Of a DNA stretch of 39,139 bases, positions 2,571-26,058 are shown one piece after another; the stretch's first letter is position 1; each line of letters opens with the position of its first letter. The notes under the pieces were generated by a model, which was not told the origin of the DNA, did no database searches, and saw only the letters and a list, made by a program, of their open reading frames with translations. The stretch is from sequence record SRR20825019_1774, one strand, 5' to 3'. A program made the translations under genes and the position numbers.

Positions 2571-3611
2571 GGTGACAACAAAATGATCTGTTCAACCACG
2601 ACGCCTAAGAATATTCACAGCGCCTTATGCGGCTTGCATTTATAGCCTTGCAAGTGGGACAAGCTTGCTTGGCACGGAGGAATCAGCGTGACGAGGCACA
2701 GCAGCCTGCATGCTGCTCGCGCACCTAAGGCCTTGCGGGGCCGGTGGCCGTGCCCCACCAACTGGTAAGGGACTTGACCGCGCGGCACGCGGCGGAGGCG
2801 GGCCCCGAGTCGGTCTTGCGATGGTGTGTGCCGAGTCAGTCGGCCGAGCACGTCACTCCGCATCATCGGTCGAGCACGGGCGAGTCGGGGACTGGTGGCC
2901 GCCGGCCAGTGCGGCGGCCCACGGCCCGGGCGGCGTCACCGGTGAGGGCCGATCTCACCTGAGATCATCAGACGTTGAGGATGGCCACGGCCATCCTCGA
3001 CATTTGAAACTTGACCTAATCCCAATCATCATCAGGCGGGCCGCCGTTCCGCCACCAATACTTGGATCAGTAGCACGCAAACGGTCGCCCGCCCCCCACC
3101 CCACATGCCGCAGCAATTGTACAGTAATTGTAATTGTGACTTCGACCATACACCATGCACCAGAAGGCTGGTAGGGTGGGGCTGTGACGTAGCATAGACG
3201 TCCTTGTGGTTTCCGTTGCCAGTCTCGACTCTTGCCAGGAACCAAATCGGTTGGCCCCCCCACCCGGTGACGCCCCGCTTCAGACCATTGCCACAACTGC
3301 GGTTTGCTCGGGGCCTGCCGCTCCAGTCGCCGTCCGTGCGACCGGACGAGAGTCATCAGCCACCCCGGTAGTAGCCTTGGAGCGGTCATTGGCACCCGGC
3401 TCCGTTTCCGCCAAGGCAAAGGGCCAACGGTGTGAACCCTGACACAAGAACGAAGAATGGTTCGGGAAACCAGTCGCAGGTGTGTGCTTTTTAGAGTGGC
3501 TGGCAGCAGTGCACCACACGCCTTGCAAATAAGAGTGCCCACCCATCAAGGTATGCATATCAGCGAATAGGAGCACAGGGAGCCAGTGCGAGCCGTCCTG
3601 TGCGCCGCAAG
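2571..3611. promoter_or_regulatory. GC/CpG-rich divergent intergenic island (GDH-like / PAS gene)
   Basis: Head-to-head genes, GC-rich block ~2730-2950, CCAAT at 3022 and 3055, inverted repeat gatctca-cc-tgagatc at 2951-2966. May contain unrecognised 5' exons of the PAS gene. Confidence 0.55.
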
Positions 3612-6600
3612 ATGAAAAAGACTAACAAGGAACCAGATAAAGGCAAGGGAAAGGTGTCCTTGCAGACGGAAGATGCACAGGCCACTTTGTTCGGAACGCT
3701 TTTGCAGTCATACCGACAGGCTATAGTTATCATAGACAGCCGGGGAGTCATGATCGTAGTTTCACAGTCCGCGTGCGAAATGTTTGGTTACGAAGAGGAT
3801 TATCTACTCGGGAAGAACGTGACTGAGATCATGCCAGAGCGCTTCGCGCCCGACCACACCTCGTTCATTCAAGCATATTTGCAAACTGGTATTAAGAAGG
3901 TCATCGGGATGCAGCGGGTGATTCCCGCTCTCCGTGTCGGCGAGGAAGAGTTCCCTGTACAGATAGCGCTCTCCGAGATGGTGATAGACGATGAGCACTA
4001 CTTCTGCTCCATATTAACAGATGTGACCGAGCGCGTGCGTGAGGAAGAACGCCTCGCGCTGAGCGAGGAAAAGGCAAAGTCCATAACGGACGTTGTCAGG
4101 GACGGTATGAAAACCTCTTGGGTGACTAGGATTGTTAGGAAACTGGCTCACTTCGACTTGCAGGTATCGTGACGTGCAACTTTAAGGGTATTATCAATGG
4201 GATGAACTCCTCTGCCGAGGCGATGTTCGGGATTGAGCGGGAGGACGCTATCGGGCAGAATGTGAAAGTTTTCATGCACGATGAAGACGCCAAAGTGCAC
4301 GACGAAATGCTAGCGAGGTACCGACAGACCGGTAAGAAGGTTCGCATCGACCACCTGACGGCTATCCGGGCGAAGCGAATGGACGGGGAGGAGTTTCAGG
4401 CGGAGATTCGAGTAACTGAAGGCCTCGTTTCTGGTAGTGTGGTTTATATGGCGCACATTCATGAGTGCACCACTCAAATCCTCGAGGAGGAACAGGCCAA
4501 AAATCACGAGACCACGATGGAGCATATCATTGACTCGATTGCCGATGGAATTGTGACGATCGATGAGTACGGAATCATTCAGTACGCGAATCGTGCCGCT
4601 CTCAGCATGTTCCAGTTCCAGAGCGAGCACGCGATGCTGAAGAGAAACGTGAAGATCCTGATGCCTAACCCGTACCGCGACGATCACGATCTCTACCTGG
4701 AAGCCTACCGGCGAACGGGGGAAGCCAAGGTGATTGGGCAGAAAAGGGGACGCGACGTTCAGGGTATCCGCACCGACCATACCGTCTTCCCCCTGAGAAT
4801 TACGATAACAGAGGTATACGTCGGGGGAGTGCGCTTGTTTTCGGCTACGTTGCATGACACCACCGAGCAAAAGAAGAAGTTTGAGGCCATCTGTAAGAGC
4901 GAGGACAAGATACGTGGCTTGATAGAAAACAACGCCGATTGCATCGTGACCATCAACGAGCGGGGGGAGGTTGATGCGATGAACGATGCCGGCCTGCAAA
5001 TGTTTGGGTACACACTCTCGTATCTGCGCGGCAAGAACGTGAGCATTCTCGCTCCGGAACCTTATCGATCAGAACACGATGAGTACTTGGAGGCGTACCT
5101 CCGCACTGGTGTGAGGAAGGTTATTGGCCTGAGCCGTGCCGCCGAGGTGGCGGCCATCCGGAAGAATGGCGAGACGTTCCCCATCGAGATTGCAGTCAGC
5201 GAGGCAGTCGTGGGATCGCAGCGCTATTTTACCGCGATCATCCGCGACATTACTGATCGAATTTTGCGGGAAACGGAGTTGAAGCGCTCCGAGGAGCGCG
5301 TGCGATCATTTTTTGACACTGCCGCGGACGGCATGATGAGCATCGATGAGTACGGTGTTGTGGTCGCCGCGAACAAGTCAGTGACGCGAGTGTTCCAGTT
5401 TGAGGCATCCGAAATCATCGGAAACAACGTGTCCATGCTGATGCCATCCCCATACCGCGAGGAGCACGACTCGTATGTCCGCCGGTACGCCACGACAAGA
5501 AAGGCCACGGTGATGGGCATGGGGGCACAGGAGGTTACCGGGATGCGCAAGGATGGAAGCGTGTTCCCGCTGCAGCTTACGCTATCGGAGGCAATCGTTG
5601 GGTCCCAGACGCTGTACACCGGCATACTCCGAGATATCACTGATAGGAAGATTCAAGAGGAGGAGCTACGGGCTGCAGAAGAAAAGGTGAAGGCCATTCT
5701 GGACACTGCCTGTGATGGAGTGGTCGTCATGGACCCCTCGGGCATTATTGAGACGTTTAATGCGGCCGCGGAGACCATGTGGGGCTATGCCTCGCATGAG
5801 GTGATCGGGAAGAATGTGAACATGCTGATGCCTGAACCGTATGCTTCCAACCACGACTCATACCTGAATGCATACGCCATGACTGGAGAGAGAAAGGTGA
5901 TAGGTTTCAACAGGCAGGTTTCGGCTTGTCGGAAGTCCGGCGAGGTATTTCCGGTGGAGATTGGCGTGGCAGAGGTGCATGCGGGATCGCGCAAGGTTTT
6001 CACTGGAATAGTGCGTGACATTTTGGCCAAGGTGCAGCTCGAAGAGGAGCTTGCGAAGCGTGAGAACCGCCTCCGGGGTGTGATTGAGAGTGCCTCGGAT
6101 GGCGTCGTGGTGATTGATGATATGGGCGAGATAATGTCTTTCAACCATGCAGCCGAGAAAATGTTTGACCGGTTAGAGCCCGACACGACCGGGCAGAATG
6201 TGCGCATTCTGATGCCGTCGCCTTATGATAGTCAGCATGACGGTTACCTTAAAGCGTATCGGACCACCGGTATTCGCAAGATCATTGGGAATACACGCGA
6301 GCTGATTGCAAGGCGCTCGGACTCCAGCGTGTTCCCCGTGGAGGTGTCTGTCTCCGAGTCGATTGTGGGTAGCACCCGGCAGTTCACTGGAATAATCCGC
6401 GATATAACAGAGCGAAAGCACGCTGAGGAGAAGCTTAGAAAAAGTGAGGAGCGGATGAAGCTCATGATGGAGAACGCCATTGATGGTGTAATTTCTATTG
6501 ACGAGACTGGCACCGTTGTCGCTGCGAACCCCGCTGCCAACAAAATATTCGGGTATTCTCGGGGTGATCTGGACGGTGAAAACGTCAATATCCTCATGGG

Positions 6601-7867
6601 CGAGCCCCACCGTGGCAAGCACAATTCTTACATCAAGCGGTACGTGCAGACGGGCATCAGGCATATATTAGGGAAGAAGATGAATGAGGTGCGCGGGCTT
6701 AAGCGGGATAACACCGAGTTCGATCTTGCCTTGTCAGTATCAGAATCCACCGTTGGGTCGAGCCGCGTGTTTACTGGGATTGTCCGTGACATCACAGAAG
6801 CAAAGCAGAATGAAATGCGCGTAAAGGCCCGTGAAGAAAAAGTGAGGTCTCTCTTTGACGAAGCGCTGAAGGGTGTTATAGTGACGGACAACGTTGGTAC
6901 GATTCAAGAAGTGAACGCGTACCTGTGCAAGGTGCTGGAATACACCCCAACAGAATTGATCGGACAGAACGTTTCCATCCTGATGCCATCCCATATTGCG
7001 GAGGTCCACACACAGTTTATGGAGGCGTACACGGAGTCTGGCATTGCTCGCAGATCGGGAAAGGTAACGATGGTCACAGCTATAACTTCAAAGGGAAAAC
7101 CCAAGGACATGGAGATTGGGTTGTCAGACCTCGGCGCCAAGGCCAACTTTGTTGGCATTATGCGGGATGTCACAGTGCGTGTGAAGCATGAAGTGCCGAT
7201 CAGCATGGAGGTTCGCCTCGTGCACAAACCTCGGCCGGTCATCGAGGAAGGAGAAGTTCACTTTTCTGGAAGTGAGACTCTCTTTGAGAGCTCCCTTCCC
7301 GGAAAGTCATTGGACGGGCGGAGCGTCCGTCTGCCCCGCAAAGTCAATATGGTGCTGTCCCTCGATGATCTTCAAACATGGTCTGGATACGCGAACATTG
7401 ATGAGTCCGACCCCTTGGACAATCTGAACAACATCCTCCCCCCTGGTGTGTCAGCGGTGGAGAGAATCGCTGAAGGAGAAAAAGCCCGTGACAATAAGCC
7501 GCTGTTTGCACACGGTTCGGGCAGGAGCGAAGGGACGACGACGCACCGATCAGGGGCTGGCTCCAGTAGGGCTGCACCTGTAGTGACCATGAATCGGGGG
7601 TCGGTGTCGACCTGGAATGCGCCTGGCGGTGCGGAACAGAGTATGATGAGACAGCCCGTCGGTAGTGGCCTCGACAAGTACATGCCCGCGTACACACGTG
7701 AGTCATCAGTCAGGAGTGGCAGTGTCCTGAGGGCCCCGAAGTCGTCGCGGATTATCTCCGAGCCGTCCACCTTCAACGTAGCTAGCGCGCCACCGCCTGC
7801 GGCGAGCCAGCAGCCAAGCGTGTCCACTGGCTCCTATATGCATGGGGTGCCGAATCCCAAGCCCTGA
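3612..7867 (+). CDS. Multi-PAS protein with nine tandem FixL-like (heme-type) PAS/PAC domains and a low-complexity tail, ~1398 aa
   Basis: Exon 3612-4104, intron 4105-4163 (gtatga...ttgcag), exon 4164-7867. Nine repeats of DG(I/V)xxID..G...NVxxLMPxP....H..Y...Y..TG....IG...RDIT. The start could extend upstream. Confidence 0.9.
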
Positions 7868-7896
7868 GTAGCTGTGCATGGAGGTTTTAGAACGAC

Positions 7897-10800
7897 CTAG
7901 TTGATAATGGGCGCCATCTCATCGGGTTGGATGTGGGCCCGAGCCGTGTTTCTGGGATACAACACCAGACTGCAGTGCATTGACTCAATAAAGATATCCT
8001 TTGAAGTACACAATTCTAGTTTAGTCTTATGTACGTGCAGTGTGCCACACGTTGCTTTGCTGCGACGGGCGTAGCTTCCTTCCGCCCCTCGGTCTTCCAC
8101 CGCGAGGCCGGTCCGTCTTCATTCCCACTGATGGAGGATATGCCATGTGTGATGGCTCCTTCCGTACTGGCTTCCTGTATACCACTTCGGTCTGTTTCGG
8201 ACGCAAACGCTTCTTATCATATATAAGTTTCGTATTTGCCAGTAGCAACTCCCTCGCGGACAGCATGGGAGGAAGCCGCTTACTTCTGACCAACCTTCGT
8301 TTCACGACCTTACGACGGCCCTTGAGGTAGTCGACCACGTGGCCTGGGAGGTGCATGCCCTGGTAGTACACCAGGTGCTCTTCCTCGTGACCCGGATCCT
8401 GACCAACCTCGGGCTCCTCGGCAATCTCCTCTAGATTCAGCGGTTGTACCCCGGGAGGCGGCGCCTTCTTTCCTGCCGGACGATCGCCTTTACCTTGGGC
8501 TTTGGCTTTGGGAATCTCCTCCTGGATCTCCTCCTGCACTTCCTCAGCCTCAGTGTTCTCAGGCGCCCTCGCTGCCTTCTTCAGGCTTTTGTAGTCGCCC
8601 AAGAGCGATTCCAGGGCAGATGACATGTCGGATTCCCCTAAGGTCGTGCGAGGGGCATCCATGTCGATGTCTGTCGTCAAGGCCTCCTCCACCTCAGGAC
8701 CGGCAGCTGTTTGCCACTGCCTAAACTCCGGCAGGTCAATTATGCCGTCCTGATTATCATCATACCTATCGAATATGGCCGCAACGTCTTCTTCGGCATG
8801 CGGAAGGCCAGATTTTGCAAGGAACGCGCCTACGTCAGCTCTGTCCAGGCCTCCCTTCCCCACCTTGTCGAGCTCCCAAAACGTCTCCTCTATTGCATCC
8901 ACGGGCTTTCTCTCTGATGTCTCATCGTCCTCGGGTATTCCCACCGTGGCTGTCCCTCGGGTGAGTGCCACCGAGGGCCGATGACTGCGGACTCCCAAGT
9001 CCGATAATGAACCCTTCCGAGATATCGCCTCCTGCGATTGTAGCGCCATAAGGATCATCATGTCCTTCTGGGCGATACTGTTCGACCGCTTAACCCGCCC
9101 CGTGCCCGGGCCAGCTCCACCAACGCCCCCATTTGCGGAACTCTCTTGAAGATCAACCTGACTCATCTCCACGGATGGCTCCATCGACCCTAAGGTCATA
9201 CCAGACTCTTCGCCATTCACGCGCCGTTGTAGCTTCGCTAGCAACGCACTTCGATTCGCCATCATGTTGGCCTCCCTCGCGGCCTGCCGCTCCTTGTTTC
9301 GTGCCTGCATGATCATAAGCAGCATCTTCTGTCTCTTGGCGTTTTGTTCACGTGCCTCGGCCTCTTTCGCCTCCTTGCGTGCCGACTCGCGCTTCACAAA
9401 TAGCCACCTTTCCTCACGTTGCTTCCTCTGCTCACGGATGTACATCTGTTGCTCGTAATCGATCTGCTTTGCACTCATCTCCGCGGCGGCATTATCTACG
9501 TCCAACGACTCCTGGGACTGTGGGGCAACCTCCCGCCCGGTTGACACGAAGGTGTACGACGGGCCGCACGCCACAATCATCGGCTCTAGACCAAGCAAGT
9601 TGTCCACGACATGAGGAAACATCTTAGATTCAGGAGCCGCACCGGAGACCCCGAGCTGACCCTGTTCGCCCAACCCCCAGGTGTTGACAAAGGAGTGGCC
9701 TTCGTCATTCTCAGTGATTGCCGCGCTGTGCCATTGACCACATGACACATCCACGACCTTGCCGTCCGTGAAGTAAGCGACATGAACAGGGACCTTCTTG
9801 GTCGCAGTGCTGCCGTGACCAAGCTGGCCGAGGTGCCCGAGTCCCCAGGAATACACCTGATTGTCTGCCGTCAGAGCAACATTGTGGGCGAATCCACAAG
9901 AAATTTTCATGACGAATACTCCAAGGTCCTCGAAAGTGTCCACCCTGTGAAAATCATTAGCACGCCAGACGACAATGGGACACGCTGCCGTCTTTCTTAC
10001 CTGCATGGACTTGTCTTCATCTCCAGGCTGTTGATGCCCAGCCTCCCATCGTCGCCCAGACCCCACGAGTACACAAATCCTGCCACTGTCACCACCACAG
10101 TGTGGTGGGCACCAGTTGCAATATCAACAACACGGGCGTCAGAAAGGTCGTCCACCTCCATGGGTGTGGGCATGCTCTCCAGATTCCCATGGCCAAGCGC
10201 ACCGACACGTCCATTGCCCCAGGTGAACACCTTCGTCACCTCGTTTCCAGCCACCGCAACAACACAGGTCGTGTGCTCCTCGCCACATGCCACGGCCACA
10301 ACTTTCTGGCCTTTCAACGCCTCAACCATTCGAGGCGCATACTCATTCTGCTGCTTTCCATGACCCAGCTTAAAGTTTGCGCCGGATCCCCAGGTGAATA
10401 ACTGTCCGCTGTCGGTGGCAGCAGCCACGTGATCGCTGCGGGTGCTAATCTTTACAACCATTCTCCGTGAAAGACTGGAAATGGATTCTGGTTCGAACGA
10501 CAACGTCCGCTCCTCTCCGCATCCAAGCTCGCCCGACTTGCCCTTGCCCCAAGACAACAGATCCCCAGTTTCCTTCAATACAACGACAAACGTGTATCCA
10601 CAAGCAACGTTTCTGAACGAAAAGGGTTTGGAACCGAACTCGATTTTCATCGGACGGGCAGAGAACTTGTCGTGGGGGCCATTGCCGCGACCCAGTTGGC
10701 CGTACATTCCTGTTCCGCACGAGAATAGTGACAGCGGAAGTATGCCGCGGGCACCCATCGCCTTCTCCCTTTCCTTGGTCTTTGTGTCCCGCATCTGTTC

Positions 10801-11904
10801 CCTTCGTACCTGCACCGCCTCTCCGTCAGCCGTCTTAGCCCCCATGGACGTGTGGCGCCCTTTCCGAGTCGGGCTACTTGGACCAACAACTTCGATGGCC
10901 AGCTTCAACGTGTCCATGCTGGTGTCAACATTGAATTCTCGAAGCAGCGTCTTGGCTTGCTCCTTCTTTAGGGGCGGCGACATCGGCTTCGAGGCATCCA
11001 CAACGACGTCACCCTCGCTCTCCTCATCACTTTCATATGAGCTGGAATACTCATCTTCCGCAGATAACTCCGGATTAGGGGGCGGTTCTTCGGCATTCGT
11101 CTCGCCGGTGGGCTCTTCCTCCCCTATTGCCTCGGGCACCACAGACACGGCATCATCTTGTGCCGTGGCCCCCTCAGTCATTGAAGAATCCCGAACGCTG
11201 TCCCCATCAGTTGCTACGTCATCCGTCGGTGCCTCGGAAGGTGCCTCCTCGGTCCCCTTCCTCTTGCGTTCTGCTAGTCCAAGCTTCTCGCGCATTTGCT
11301 CCCGGCGACTCTTTTTGGGCAAACTCTTCTCCCTTTCCTTCTGTGCAGCTAGTTGAAGCTCTGCCTCCCTCCAGGTCCGCACAGATCGCCCAAGTTTCAT
11401 CACCTTCTTGCCTCCTTCCTGAAACCTTTTCTTCTTTTTTTCTATCTCGCGCTTGCTCTGCGCATACCACTCAAGCACTTCCTCGAAGCTAAGCTGCCCA
11501 TCCTCATCCCAGTCACGTTGCGTCAATATCTGCACCGCGTCATTGTAGTCATGTGCCTTTCCCATTGCCTTCAGCATATTTCGAAGCTCATTTATCTCAA
11601 TCTTGCCGCTCTTGTCAACATCGAACTCCTCAAAGACTGCCTTCACGGCCTCGACCTCTTCGCTAGGAACGAGATGTGAACGCCGTCTGCTCATCTTCCT
11701 CTCTCGTGCACCCCGGGGGCTCTTAATGTCTTCATCGCCTTCCACATCTTTCCGCCGTCTCCGCGGCGTTACATCGCCCGAATAGGCGGCCGACGTTGAC
11801 ACTATTGGCCTGACCGTTCTGCCCGGTAGGTTAGCTGTGTTCTCTGGGGGCAGTGAAGAAGGCGGCTGGGGTTGCCGATTCGGCAAAGACGCTTCGTTGG
11901 TCAT
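7897..11904 (-). CDS. EF-hand + RCC1-repeat + coiled-coil + EF-hand protein, 3 exons
   Basis: Introns 9945-10000 and 7999-8050 join the 635-aa and 679-aa ORFs and a short last exon. EF loops DVDKSGKIEINE, DWDEDGQLSFEE, DKVGKGGLDRAD, DDNQDGIIDLPE. RCC1 blades such as VACGEEHT...VFTWGNGRVGALGHG and VYSWGLGHLGQLGHG. Confidence 0.85.
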
Positions 11905-24918: not shown

Positions 24919-26058
24919 TCACATAATATCACGGGTCTGTTCCCACACAGTGAGGGCGTTGTCTACAGCCTGGTCCATGTTGAAGTATTTGTACGAGGCA
25001 AGTCGACCAACAAAGATCACATCACTCTCCTGTTCGGCATACTGCCTGTACTTCTCATATAATGCCTTGTTTGCGTCATTGGGAACAGGGTAGTAAGGGT
25101 CACCGTCGCTCGTGGTTGTTTCAACTGATATCACCGTGTGATCGGATTTCTGATTCAGGAAGTGTTTGTATTCCACGATACGAGTGAACTCCACCTCAGA
25201 GCCGGGGTAGTTTACAACAGAATTCTCTTGGAAGTACTCTTTGTTCATGAAGGTGTCCCACTTGAAGTTGATGGATCGATACTCAAGCTTCGGGAGACCC
25301 TTATCCGCAAAATATTTATCGATAGGACCGGTGAAGTAGATCTTATTACACTTAAGTTTCGAACGTACAGCAAAAAAGTCTACACTGGTGACAACTGTAA
25401 TATTGGGATGGTTAAGCATGTTCTCAAATATCCTAGTGTAGCCATTTGTAGGCAACGCTTGATGCTTGTCACCAAAATATCTGTCATCGAAATTGTTACG
25501 AACTGGAATGCGCTCAAGAACGCTGGCATCCAATTCACGAGGATGCTTGTCCCATTGCTTAATTGTGTACGTTTCGAAAATCAATTTGAAGAGAGTCTCT
25601 CCAACGCGCGCTTTGGCAGCCTCTTCGCCGTTCTTCGCTGCGCCTCCTTCGGGCTTGACTTGATTGGTCGATAGCCACTCGTTCATTTGCTCTTCATTTT
25701 CAATGTTGAGATCGAATAGCTTATTCACGGTGGTGATATTGACAGGTACTGGAACCAGCTTCCCTTCAACCTTTCCAACAACCTTGTGCTCATATGGCGT
25801 CCACTCCGTGAACTGTTGCAAATACTCCCACACTTTGTCGATATTGGTGTGGAACAAGTGAGCCCCATATTTTGACACGCGAATGCCAGTGGTTTCATCG
25901 ATATGATCATAACAGTTACCTCCTATGTGGTCCCGGGACTCTAGCACTAGAACGCGTTTACCATCGATGTTGGCGCTCCTTTCAGCGATGACACTCCCGG
26001 AGAGACCAGCCCCAACGCACACAACGTCATAGTCTTCGTACAGCTTCGGATTGTCCAT
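24919..26058 (-). CDS. glf: UDP-galactopyranose mutase, prokaryote-type, intronless, 379 aa
   Basis: FAD motif VGAGLSG, HIGGNCYD, YGAHLFHT, YTIKQW, RIPVR, YTGPID-like FTGPID, LEYRS, TRIVEYKHF, PYYPV, GRLASYKYFNMDQAV. Confidence 0.95.
   Translation of the reverse strand: MDNPKLYEDYDVVCVGAGLSGSVIAERSANIDGKRVLVLESRDHIGGNCYDHIDETTGIRVSKYGAHLFHTNIDKVWEYLQQFTEWTPYEHKVVGKVEGKLVPVPVNITTVNKLFDLNIENEEQMNEWLSTNQVKPEGGAAKNGEEAAKARVGETLFKLIFETYTIKQWDKHPRELDASVLERIPVRNNFDDRYFGDKHQALPTNGYTRIFENMLNHPNITVVTSVDFFAVRSKLKCNKIYFTGPIDKYFADKGLPKLEYRSINFKWDTFMNKEYFQENSVVNYPGSEVEFTRIVEYKHFLNQKSDHTVISVETTTSDGDPYYPVPNDANKALYEKYRQYAEQESDVIFVGRLASYKYFNMDQAVDNALTVWEQTRDIM

Follow-up and report, generated by a model that had tools for sequence, protein, structure and literature searches.

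The window analysed here is a stretch of 39,139 nucleotides (nt) of DNA from sequence record SRR20825019_1774. Our subject is a gene at 3612-7867 on its plus strand, which has two exons and one intron and encodes a product of 1398 amino acids (aa): nine tandem PAS domains of the FixL type (PAS1 to PAS9, also called D1 to D9 below) followed by a tail. The layout of this soluble protein, a possible gas or redox sensor, is unusual in that nine FixL-type PAS domains occur with no recognisable enzyme part; the domain class itself is already known.

Gene model and protein architecture

Read with translation table 11, the locus appears as two open reading frames (ORFs) in differing frames, 3600..4172 and 4169..7867. 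We combined all GT donors at 4100-4111 with all AG acceptors at 4158-4169, and only one pair restored the frame: 4105..4163, a 59-nt intron whose removal yields a single frame of 1398 aa from the ATG at 3612 to the stop codon at 7865-7867. The junction falls inside PAS domain 2, where splicing regains a normal PAS N-terminal strand. The donor/acceptor pattern of this intron occurs once in the window versus 0.02 occurrences expected by chance. Indeed, exactly these 59 nt are absent from a 1299-nt contig of public run X1. Contigs cover 3957-7970 (X1) and 6381-7994 (X2), and besides the intron they contain no joint or indel. They end 103-127 nt beyond the stop codon (X1 at 7970, X2 at 7994), which makes a downstream effector exon unlikely; the next contig begins at 8024, within the convergent neighbour gene. 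At the other end of the gene, there is an in-frame stop at 3492, and the ATG at 3612 is the first ATG downstream of it. Domain 1 begins 20 aa after this ATG with a normal N-cap.

The X1 and X2 contigs likely come from a cDNA library; their loose ends carry letters that we take to resemble a template-switch oligo and a Nextera adapter. The X2 contig starts at 6381 (+), preceded by what is presumably template-switch oligo sequence, and depth at this start is 38.5 in X2 versus 9.55 in X1. This start suggests either that the cDNA has its 5' end inside the gene or that a shorter transcript exists, with PAS8, PAS9, and the tail. Twelve differences separate the contigs from the window, six of them synonymous (23% expected, p=0.04) and the other six conservative. 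This synonymous excess and the intact frame of 1398 codons are weak evidence of constraint on the gene. Altogether, these data show that the locus is a eukaryotic nuclear gene that is intact and, it appears, both transcribed and spliced.

A search of the protein with a profile built from the nine units returned nine PAS domains, each scoring 148-178 bits (Table 1). Pairwise identity among them is only 21-48%, and their alignment retains five invariant columns, including that of the proximal heme-ligand His. Divergence is greatest towards the ends of the array, in D1, D2, and D9, and D2 forms the longest branch in a domain tree. The spacing from the DIT-type (D-I/V-T) motif at the C-terminal end of each domain to the next domain is nearly constant. 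We also considered an origin by triplication, with units D1-3, D4-6, and D7-9, and rejected it: domain pairs in the same phase share 33.7% identity versus 34.4% for all 36 pairs, as averages worked out by hand from the domain identity matrix.

Table 1. Features of the nine-domain PAS gene, in window coordinates
Feature	Position	Strand	Evidence and remarks
Exon 1: start codon, 20-aa charged N-terminus, PAS1, linker, first 16 residues of PAS2	3612..4104	+	ORF, splice model, PAS_9 E=3e-11
GT..AG intron, 59 nt, inside PAS2	4105..4163	+	Frame, unique pattern, X1 contig
Exon 2: remaining PAS2, PAS3-PAS9, tail, stop (7865-7867)	4164..7867	+	ORF, splice model, continuous contigs
Probable 3' untranslated region	7868..7994	+	Contig ends 7970 (X1), 7994 (X2)
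PAS1, aa 21-145	3672..4046	+	162 bits; His kept, Arg220-equivalent kept, Ala at Arg206 position
PAS2, aa 149-273, intron-split	4056..4489	+	His, Arg206 kept; Arg220->Thr, Ile215->Arg; divergent
PAS3, aa 277-404	4499..4882	+	Nine-domain profile; His and distal Arg kept
PAS4, aa 408-534	4892..5272	+	Nine-domain profile; His and distal Arg kept
PAS5, aa 538-663	5282..5659	+	His, Arg206 kept; Arg220->Ala; Met at His+16, His+18
PAS6, aa 667-791	5669..6043	+	His and distal Arg kept; modelled domain
PAS7, aa 795-919	6053..6427	+	Nine-domain profile; His and distal Arg kept
PAS8, aa 923-1048	6437..6814	+	His, Arg206, His214 kept; Arg220->Met
PAS9, aa 1052-1174	6824..7192	+	His kept; Arg220->Thr, Ile215->Arg, Phe232->Lys; most degenerate pocket
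Ser/Pro/Gly-rich tail, 224 aa (aa 1175-1398), no recognisable domain	7193..7864	+	Composition, Pfam, Atlas

The protein is not a FixL sensor histidine kinase. Pfam returned PAS families only, with no kinase, cyclase, or EAL domain and no HisKA or HATPase_c family; two further rows are noise (MoaE at 24.9 bits with 0 stretches passing, and TniB under the cut-off). A tblastn comparison of the 120 best homologs, most of which carry HisKA/HATPase, REC, GGDEF, or cyclase domains, with the 39-kb window placed none of 1105 high-scoring segment pairs (HSPs) outside the PAS region, and no HSP in the window is kinase-like. Likewise, the 1.07-kb spacer upstream of the gene contains two ORFs, neither with a Pfam match. 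The highest mean hydropathy over 19 residues is 1.5 on the Kyte-Doolittle scale and lies within a PAS strand, so there is no transmembrane (TM) helix; in the homologs P0002 and P0003, the values reach 2.6.

The tail is disordered-looking and matched no Pfam family at E<=10 and nothing in the Atlas. Its reading frame is backed by codon usage and by stop counts in all three of its thirds, with 0 stops in frame versus 1-6 per 76 codons in the other frames. A single-sequence AlphaFold2 (AF2) model of D9 plus tail had a predicted local distance difference test score (pLDDT) of 36 even across the PAS part and is hence uninformative. At aa ~1303-1344 of the tail (window 7577-7702, +), there is a faint PAS-like stretch, running from a strand to the F-helix, with Leu at the His position. 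It reaches E=0.042 with a probability of 1.2% in hhalign, and its hidden Markov model score was reached by 6 of 1000 shuffled sequences. By its sequence, this stretch may be a decayed tenth PAS domain.

These results bear on an earlier sequence-only reading of the window, which had placed the gene at 3612-7867; the locus is confirmed, and every part described there is present. It had seen no TM helix and, in the tail, no sign of a kinase, cyclase, or EAL domain, which agrees with the Kyte-Doolittle maximum of 1.5 and with the Pfam search, the tail scan, and the tblastn comparison. It had further proposed to look for extra exons in transcripts: none occurs between 3957 and 7970, and 3300-3956 is uncovered.

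Domain class and putative heme pockets

Among solved structures, the nine domains are most similar to the heme domains of FixL. The long ORF matches the FixL heme domain of S. meliloti with E=6e-32, and the nine-domain profile aligns with that of B. japonicum (BjFixL; 1dp6) without gaps over 121 residues with E=1.1e-37. When sequences in the PDB are ranked by this profile, the best seven are all FixL and the following six are DosP/EcDOS. The NCBIfam FixL model matches eight stretches of the protein, in the PAS part only, for 699 bits versus a cut-off of 850. The AF2 model of D6 (pLDDT 82) superposes on FixL 8js5 with a TM-score of 0.93 and a root-mean-square deviation of 1.3 A, and its best 20 fold matches are all FixL heme domains. 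Based on sequence and predicted fold, we assign the nine domains to the FixL/DosP heme-PAS class. Within this cluster, a His on F-alpha is the criterion for heme binding, according to an excerpt of bioRxiv 10.1101/2023.04.23.537977.

Comparison with solved members of the class shows where the window protein departs from them. The rhizobial FixL proteins (B. japonicum 1DP6/1DRM/8JS5; S. meliloti 1D06) share fold and class with the window domains at 41-47% identity; however, FixL combines a single heme-PAS domain with HisKA/HATPase and signals to FixJ, whereas the window protein has nine domains and no kinase, and FixL Arg206 has an Ala equivalent in six of them. E. coli DosP/EcDOS (1V9Y, 9CDR), also a His-ligated heme-PAS protein, ranks second among solved relatives (E ~1e-22, TM-score 0.8) but has a GGDEF/EAL output that the window protein lacks. 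The DosP heme has a distal Met ligand, for which a possible counterpart exists only in D5, with Met at His+18. Finally, the effector-less "short" PAS/LOV protein PpSB1-LOV (5J3W) is a distant fold match that acts as a sensor without fused output, through dimer rearrangement. It is a bacterial protein with a single flavin-binding domain, and the likeness is in mode of action only.

Pocket positions were numbered by BjFixL through the profile alignment to 1dp6. In BjFixL, His200 is the proximal ligand and Arg220 hydrogen-bonds bound O2, as given in an excerpt of PMC10765370. The proximal His is present in all nine domains, as is Tyr207. Positions 236 and 238 (Leu236 and Ile238 in BjFixL) are hydrophobic in 9/9 domains and position 215 (Ile215) in 7/9. 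The distal Arg220 is kept in five domains (D1, D3, D4, D6, and D7); among 1214 other His-bearing domains, 921 keep Arg at this position. Arg occupies the Arg206 position in D2, D5, and D8 only. Since the domains are only 21-48% identical, the invariant His is unlikely to be a mere product of recent copying. We also predicted a complex of two D5-D6 copies with four hemes, and its values (score 0.01, mark 0.42) speak neither for nor against a dimer.

The two arginines show a pattern along the array. D2, D5, and D8, that is, every third domain, have Arg206 and lack Arg220, and all five domains with Arg220 have Ala at position 206. As a general rule, such complementarity was rejected, as it is not seen in the 1214 other His-bearing domains (odds ratio 0.95, p=0.77). 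In addition, Met residues occur near the predicted pocket in D5, at His+16 and His+18, and in D8, at the Arg220 position.

The sequence-only reading had described nine PAS units of FixL type, each with a His at the proximal position. All of this is borne out: there are nine profile matches of 148-178 bits, the FixL-type assignment is supported by the profile match at E=1.1e-37 and the D6 model at TM-score 0.93, and the His forms an invariant column aligned with BjFixL His200. The nine short His motifs that it quoted are all present in the translation.

Relatives, other arrays, and host

No ortholog with the same architecture turned up in either protein collection, including one of 1.84 billion representatives, in the kind of search that the sequence-only reading had proposed. 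Among these representatives, 307,772 match the domain profile (E<=0.001), and none reaches an ortholog-like ~9 x 150 bits. The best full-length matches are arrays ~30% identical. The closest single domains belong to bacterial histidine kinases with 3-5 tandem FixL-type PAS domains, at 140-158 bits per domain. D3-D8 are 45-53% identical to these kinases versus 32-46% to the arrays from Bodo and diatoms. The bacterial tandem kinases (P0004, P0005, P0010 "Humisphaera sp.", and P0018 "Fimbriimonadaceae") are uncharacterised. Their linker spacing equals that of the window protein; however, they end in HisKA + HATPase_c, some with an additional REC, which the window protein lacks. Their repeats are also near-identical, with tree branch lengths of 0.03-0.3, whereas the window domains are old and divergent (0.85-3.5). 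In the domain tree, a quick search with 74 rows, eight of the nine window domains fall on the bacterial side, together with the eukaryotic hybrid kinase P0044, and D2, on its long branch, groups with P0001 and P0012, two of the arrays.

Long arrays of such domains also occur in other eukaryote-linked proteins. Among 141 new representatives examined, 29 (2299-4495 aa) have 13 C-terminal FixL-type PAS repeats, with the His in 13/13 repeats in each; members of this family are found among P0241-P0273 and P0001-P0003. Like the window protein, these giants are long, His-bearing FixL-type arrays with no known enzymatic output. They differ in having an N-terminal part of ~1800 aa, with TM segments in P0002 and P0003 and 75-97 bits per domain, whereas the window protein has nine repeats, a 20-aa N-terminus, no TM helix, and a 224-aa tail. 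Two of the giants were scanned, and both have an N-terminal TPR_TmcB match. This large family is linked to Bodo saltans by a related representative, P0274 (CUG33156.1), a protein of that species which has 10 repeats and is annotated as "methyl-accepting chemotaxis protein, putative"; it clusters at 90% identity with a 3539-aa member. P0259 (1657 aa) consists of 12 PAS domains only, and in the contig scan it was represented only by a 38%-identical fragment in a Natronospirillum metagenome-assembled genome.

A diatom-linked cluster, P0280 (with a member named from Conticribra weissflogii), has eight FixL-type PAS domains, seven of them with the His, and a C-terminal class III adenylate/guanylate cyclase domain (E=5e-53). 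It is thus a eukaryotic multi-PAS array like the window protein, at 30-40% identity to its domains, but one that is fused to a cyclase. The P0001 and P0012 domains form a cluster of their own, away from eight of the nine window domains. None of the other eukaryotic arrays is orthologous to the window protein. Nevertheless, the window gene is not alone in encoding a His-bearing FixL-type PAS array that is odd or lacks an output, and its architecture is less isolated than the sequence-only reading had implied, as arrays of 8-13 such domains exist in other eukaryote-linked proteins. Our literature search found no paper on such arrays. The FXL proteins of Chlamydomonas have one or two PAS domains with membrane segments. 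Two of them, FXL1 and FXL5, are FixL-like proteins that reportedly bind heme and O2, which Murthy et al. are said to have described in FEBS Lett in 2012.

By its neighbouring genes, the window is part of a eukaryotic chromosome. The neighbours include GDH-like fragments, an RCC1 + EF-hand gene, EDC4, a thiolase, and a UDP-galactopyranose mutase, and further DnaJ, PEX11, MORN, WD40, and CHY zinc finger genes. The GDH-like gene is oriented divergently to the PAS gene and separated from it by 1.07 kb. The RCC1 + EF-hand gene (ORFs 8027-10066 and 9997-11904) contains a 56-nt GT..AG intron at 9946-10001 (-); both introns seen in the window are therefore very short (56 and 59 nt). The mutase is of bacterial type and encoded in a single exon at 24919-26058 (-). 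It is ~60% identical to Bacteroidota and diatom proteins alike, and thus this gene may be another one of bacterial derivation in the host. For the thiolase exon, identity is 62-71% to proteins from myxobacteria, animals, Capsaspora, Corallochytrium, and Stereomyxa. Of the "protist" host proposed by the sequence-only reading, the eukaryotic part stands, given the short introns and the neighbours, while the mutase and thiolase comparisons point to no single lineage. In 1-kb bins, many values of G+C between 19001 and 29000 are 0.43-0.47 versus 0.52-0.62 elsewhere; individual bins reach 0.62 and 0.68, so that the composition is mosaic. Rfam gave 0 matches in the whole window, and a scan for bacterial promoters and terminators gave counts near the shuffle mean, which is of no relevance to a eukaryote.

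Interpretation and proposed mode of action

We favour, with a probability of about 0.5, the reading that the protein is a kinase-derived array that is mostly heme-binding, with five FixL-like O2 sites and four altered ones, and that is read in trans. Heme binding and gas sensing by the domains are inferred from sequence and the D6 model. The sequence-only reading had proposed a multi-heme sensor scaffold or gas-buffering protein acting in trans. From it, we retain the domain class, the His residues, and the absence of a TM helix and effector; gas buffering is not retained.

Several points weigh against the reading that we favour. Arg220 is replaced in D2 (Thr), D5 (Ala), D8 (Met), and D9 (Thr), and D2 and D9 have Arg at the distal hydrophobic position 215, where heme may not fit. 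With four domains lacking the distal Arg and two having Arg at 215, nine equivalent O2 sites are unlikely. Ala stands at the Arg206-equivalent in six of nine domains, and the R206A variant of BjFixL signals more weakly, as stated in the excerpt of PMC10765370. For the gene itself, 3300-3956, the 5' end of the transcript, is without contig cover, and an upstream exon may exist; run X1, the source of the spliced contig, is not recorded as RNA, and X1 and X2, both of unrecorded type, come from one sample. The synonymous excess is based on 12 sites. Finally, the domain tree is poorly resolved, with 41 of 71 inner branches open, so that identity and score make most of the case for bacterial descent.

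The lack of an output domain also fits a store or detoxifier, in which nine hemes buffer O2, keep spare heme, or turn over NO or peroxide, and in which repetition means capacity. Should all nine His residues bind, the protein would be dense in heme, and the recurrence of 8-13-domain arrays in eukaryote-linked proteins fits a role in dosage or capacity. Still, we consider such a function unlikely and the earlier suggestion of gas buffering unsupported: the linker length is constant and the DIT-type junctions are kept, as in signalling PAS proteins (the role of this motif comes from the PAS-kinase literature), the pocket types are heterogeneous, and FixL-type pockets, which have low O2 affinity and autoxidise, would be poor stores. 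Rather unlikely, in our view, is a heme-less scaffold whose PAS domains are protein-interaction or small-ligand modules and whose His is an ancestral leftover. The excerpt of bioRxiv 10.1101/2023.04.23.537977 states that the His is present in only ~60% of members of the FixL/DosP cluster, meaning that the fold allows other uses, and that the PAS domains of PASK, which are eukaryotic and of this cluster, have lost heme binding; in the window protein, the pockets of D2 and D9 are disrupted. However, with no selection for heme, the His, Tyr207, and the distal hydrophobic residues should have drifted. Instead, the His is present in 9/9 domains that are only 21-48% identical, and conservation extends to Tyr207 and the distal hydrophobic positions.

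A 5' exon missing from the gene model, or another form of the transcript, could add a membrane anchor or effector and turn the protein into a conventional sensor. This would draw on the lack of contigs at 3300-3956 and on the more distant array proteins, whose N-terminal parts are long and include TM and TPR regions. Yet it is very unlikely given the stop codon that precedes the ATG in frame at 3492, the start of domain 1 with a normal N-cap 20 aa after that ATG, the 1.07 kb to the divergent GDH-like gene without any Pfam-matching ORF, the 0/1105 tblastn HSPs of 120 homologs beyond the PAS region in the 39-kb window, and the contigs that finish 103-127 nt past the stop with a convergent gene next. 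We give least credence to a decaying, now functionless relic of a transferred bacterial kinase gene, which seems highly improbable. The kinase half is absent, D1, D2, and D9 at the ends of the array have diverged most, and a faint PAS-like stretch in the tail has another residue at the His position, all of which would be in keeping with decay. However, the frame of 1398 codons is open, an intron has been acquired and is spliced out in a contig, the contig differences combine a synonymous excess with conservative replacements, and the pocket residues are conserved among old duplicates.

Under the favoured reading of a heme-binding array read in trans, the array would most likely have arisen by loss of the kinase half from a tandem FixL-PAS histidine kinase of bacterial type. 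Heme b is probably bound by most or all of the domains, with the conserved F-helix His as ligand, as sequence and model suggest. D1, D3, D4, D6, and D7, with their O2-stabilising distal Arg, would bind O2 in the manner of FixL; D2, D5, D8, and D9 would bind O2 weakly and may respond to CO, NO, or redox state or be six-coordinate. As there is no enzymatic output, signalling would be in trans, via partner proteins. Ligand or redox changes in the PAS cores would travel along the DIT-type junctions and helical linkers, and the outcome would be an altered shape of the rod or an altered oligomeric state, together with altered availability of the tail to partners. A bolder version, which we regard as distinctly improbable, is a cytosolic nine-unit rod with deliberately different pockets, five of them O2 binders of the Arg220 type; the differing affinities for O2, NO, CO, and redox state would add up along the helical linkers to a graded read-out of several inputs, which partners would read on the disordered tail. 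That such rods form, with the 13-repeat proteins of Bodo-like protists, an unrecognised protist class of "PAS-array" gas sensors is just as speculative.

To our knowledge, the heme-PAS sensors characterised so far each carry one or two heme domains, joined to an enzyme. A soluble protein of a eukaryote in which nine domains of this kind stand without any enzyme would raise the question of how a heme signal is read without a fused output, and a second one of what is gained from stringing together many non-identical heme pockets. The gene is short with a single intron and can be divided into soluble units of 125 aa, which makes the key claims cheap to test. Unannotated eukaryote-linked proteins commonly contain long arrays of FixL-type PAS domains with the His, and O2/NO sensing in protists may rest on a so far unstudied class of proteins.

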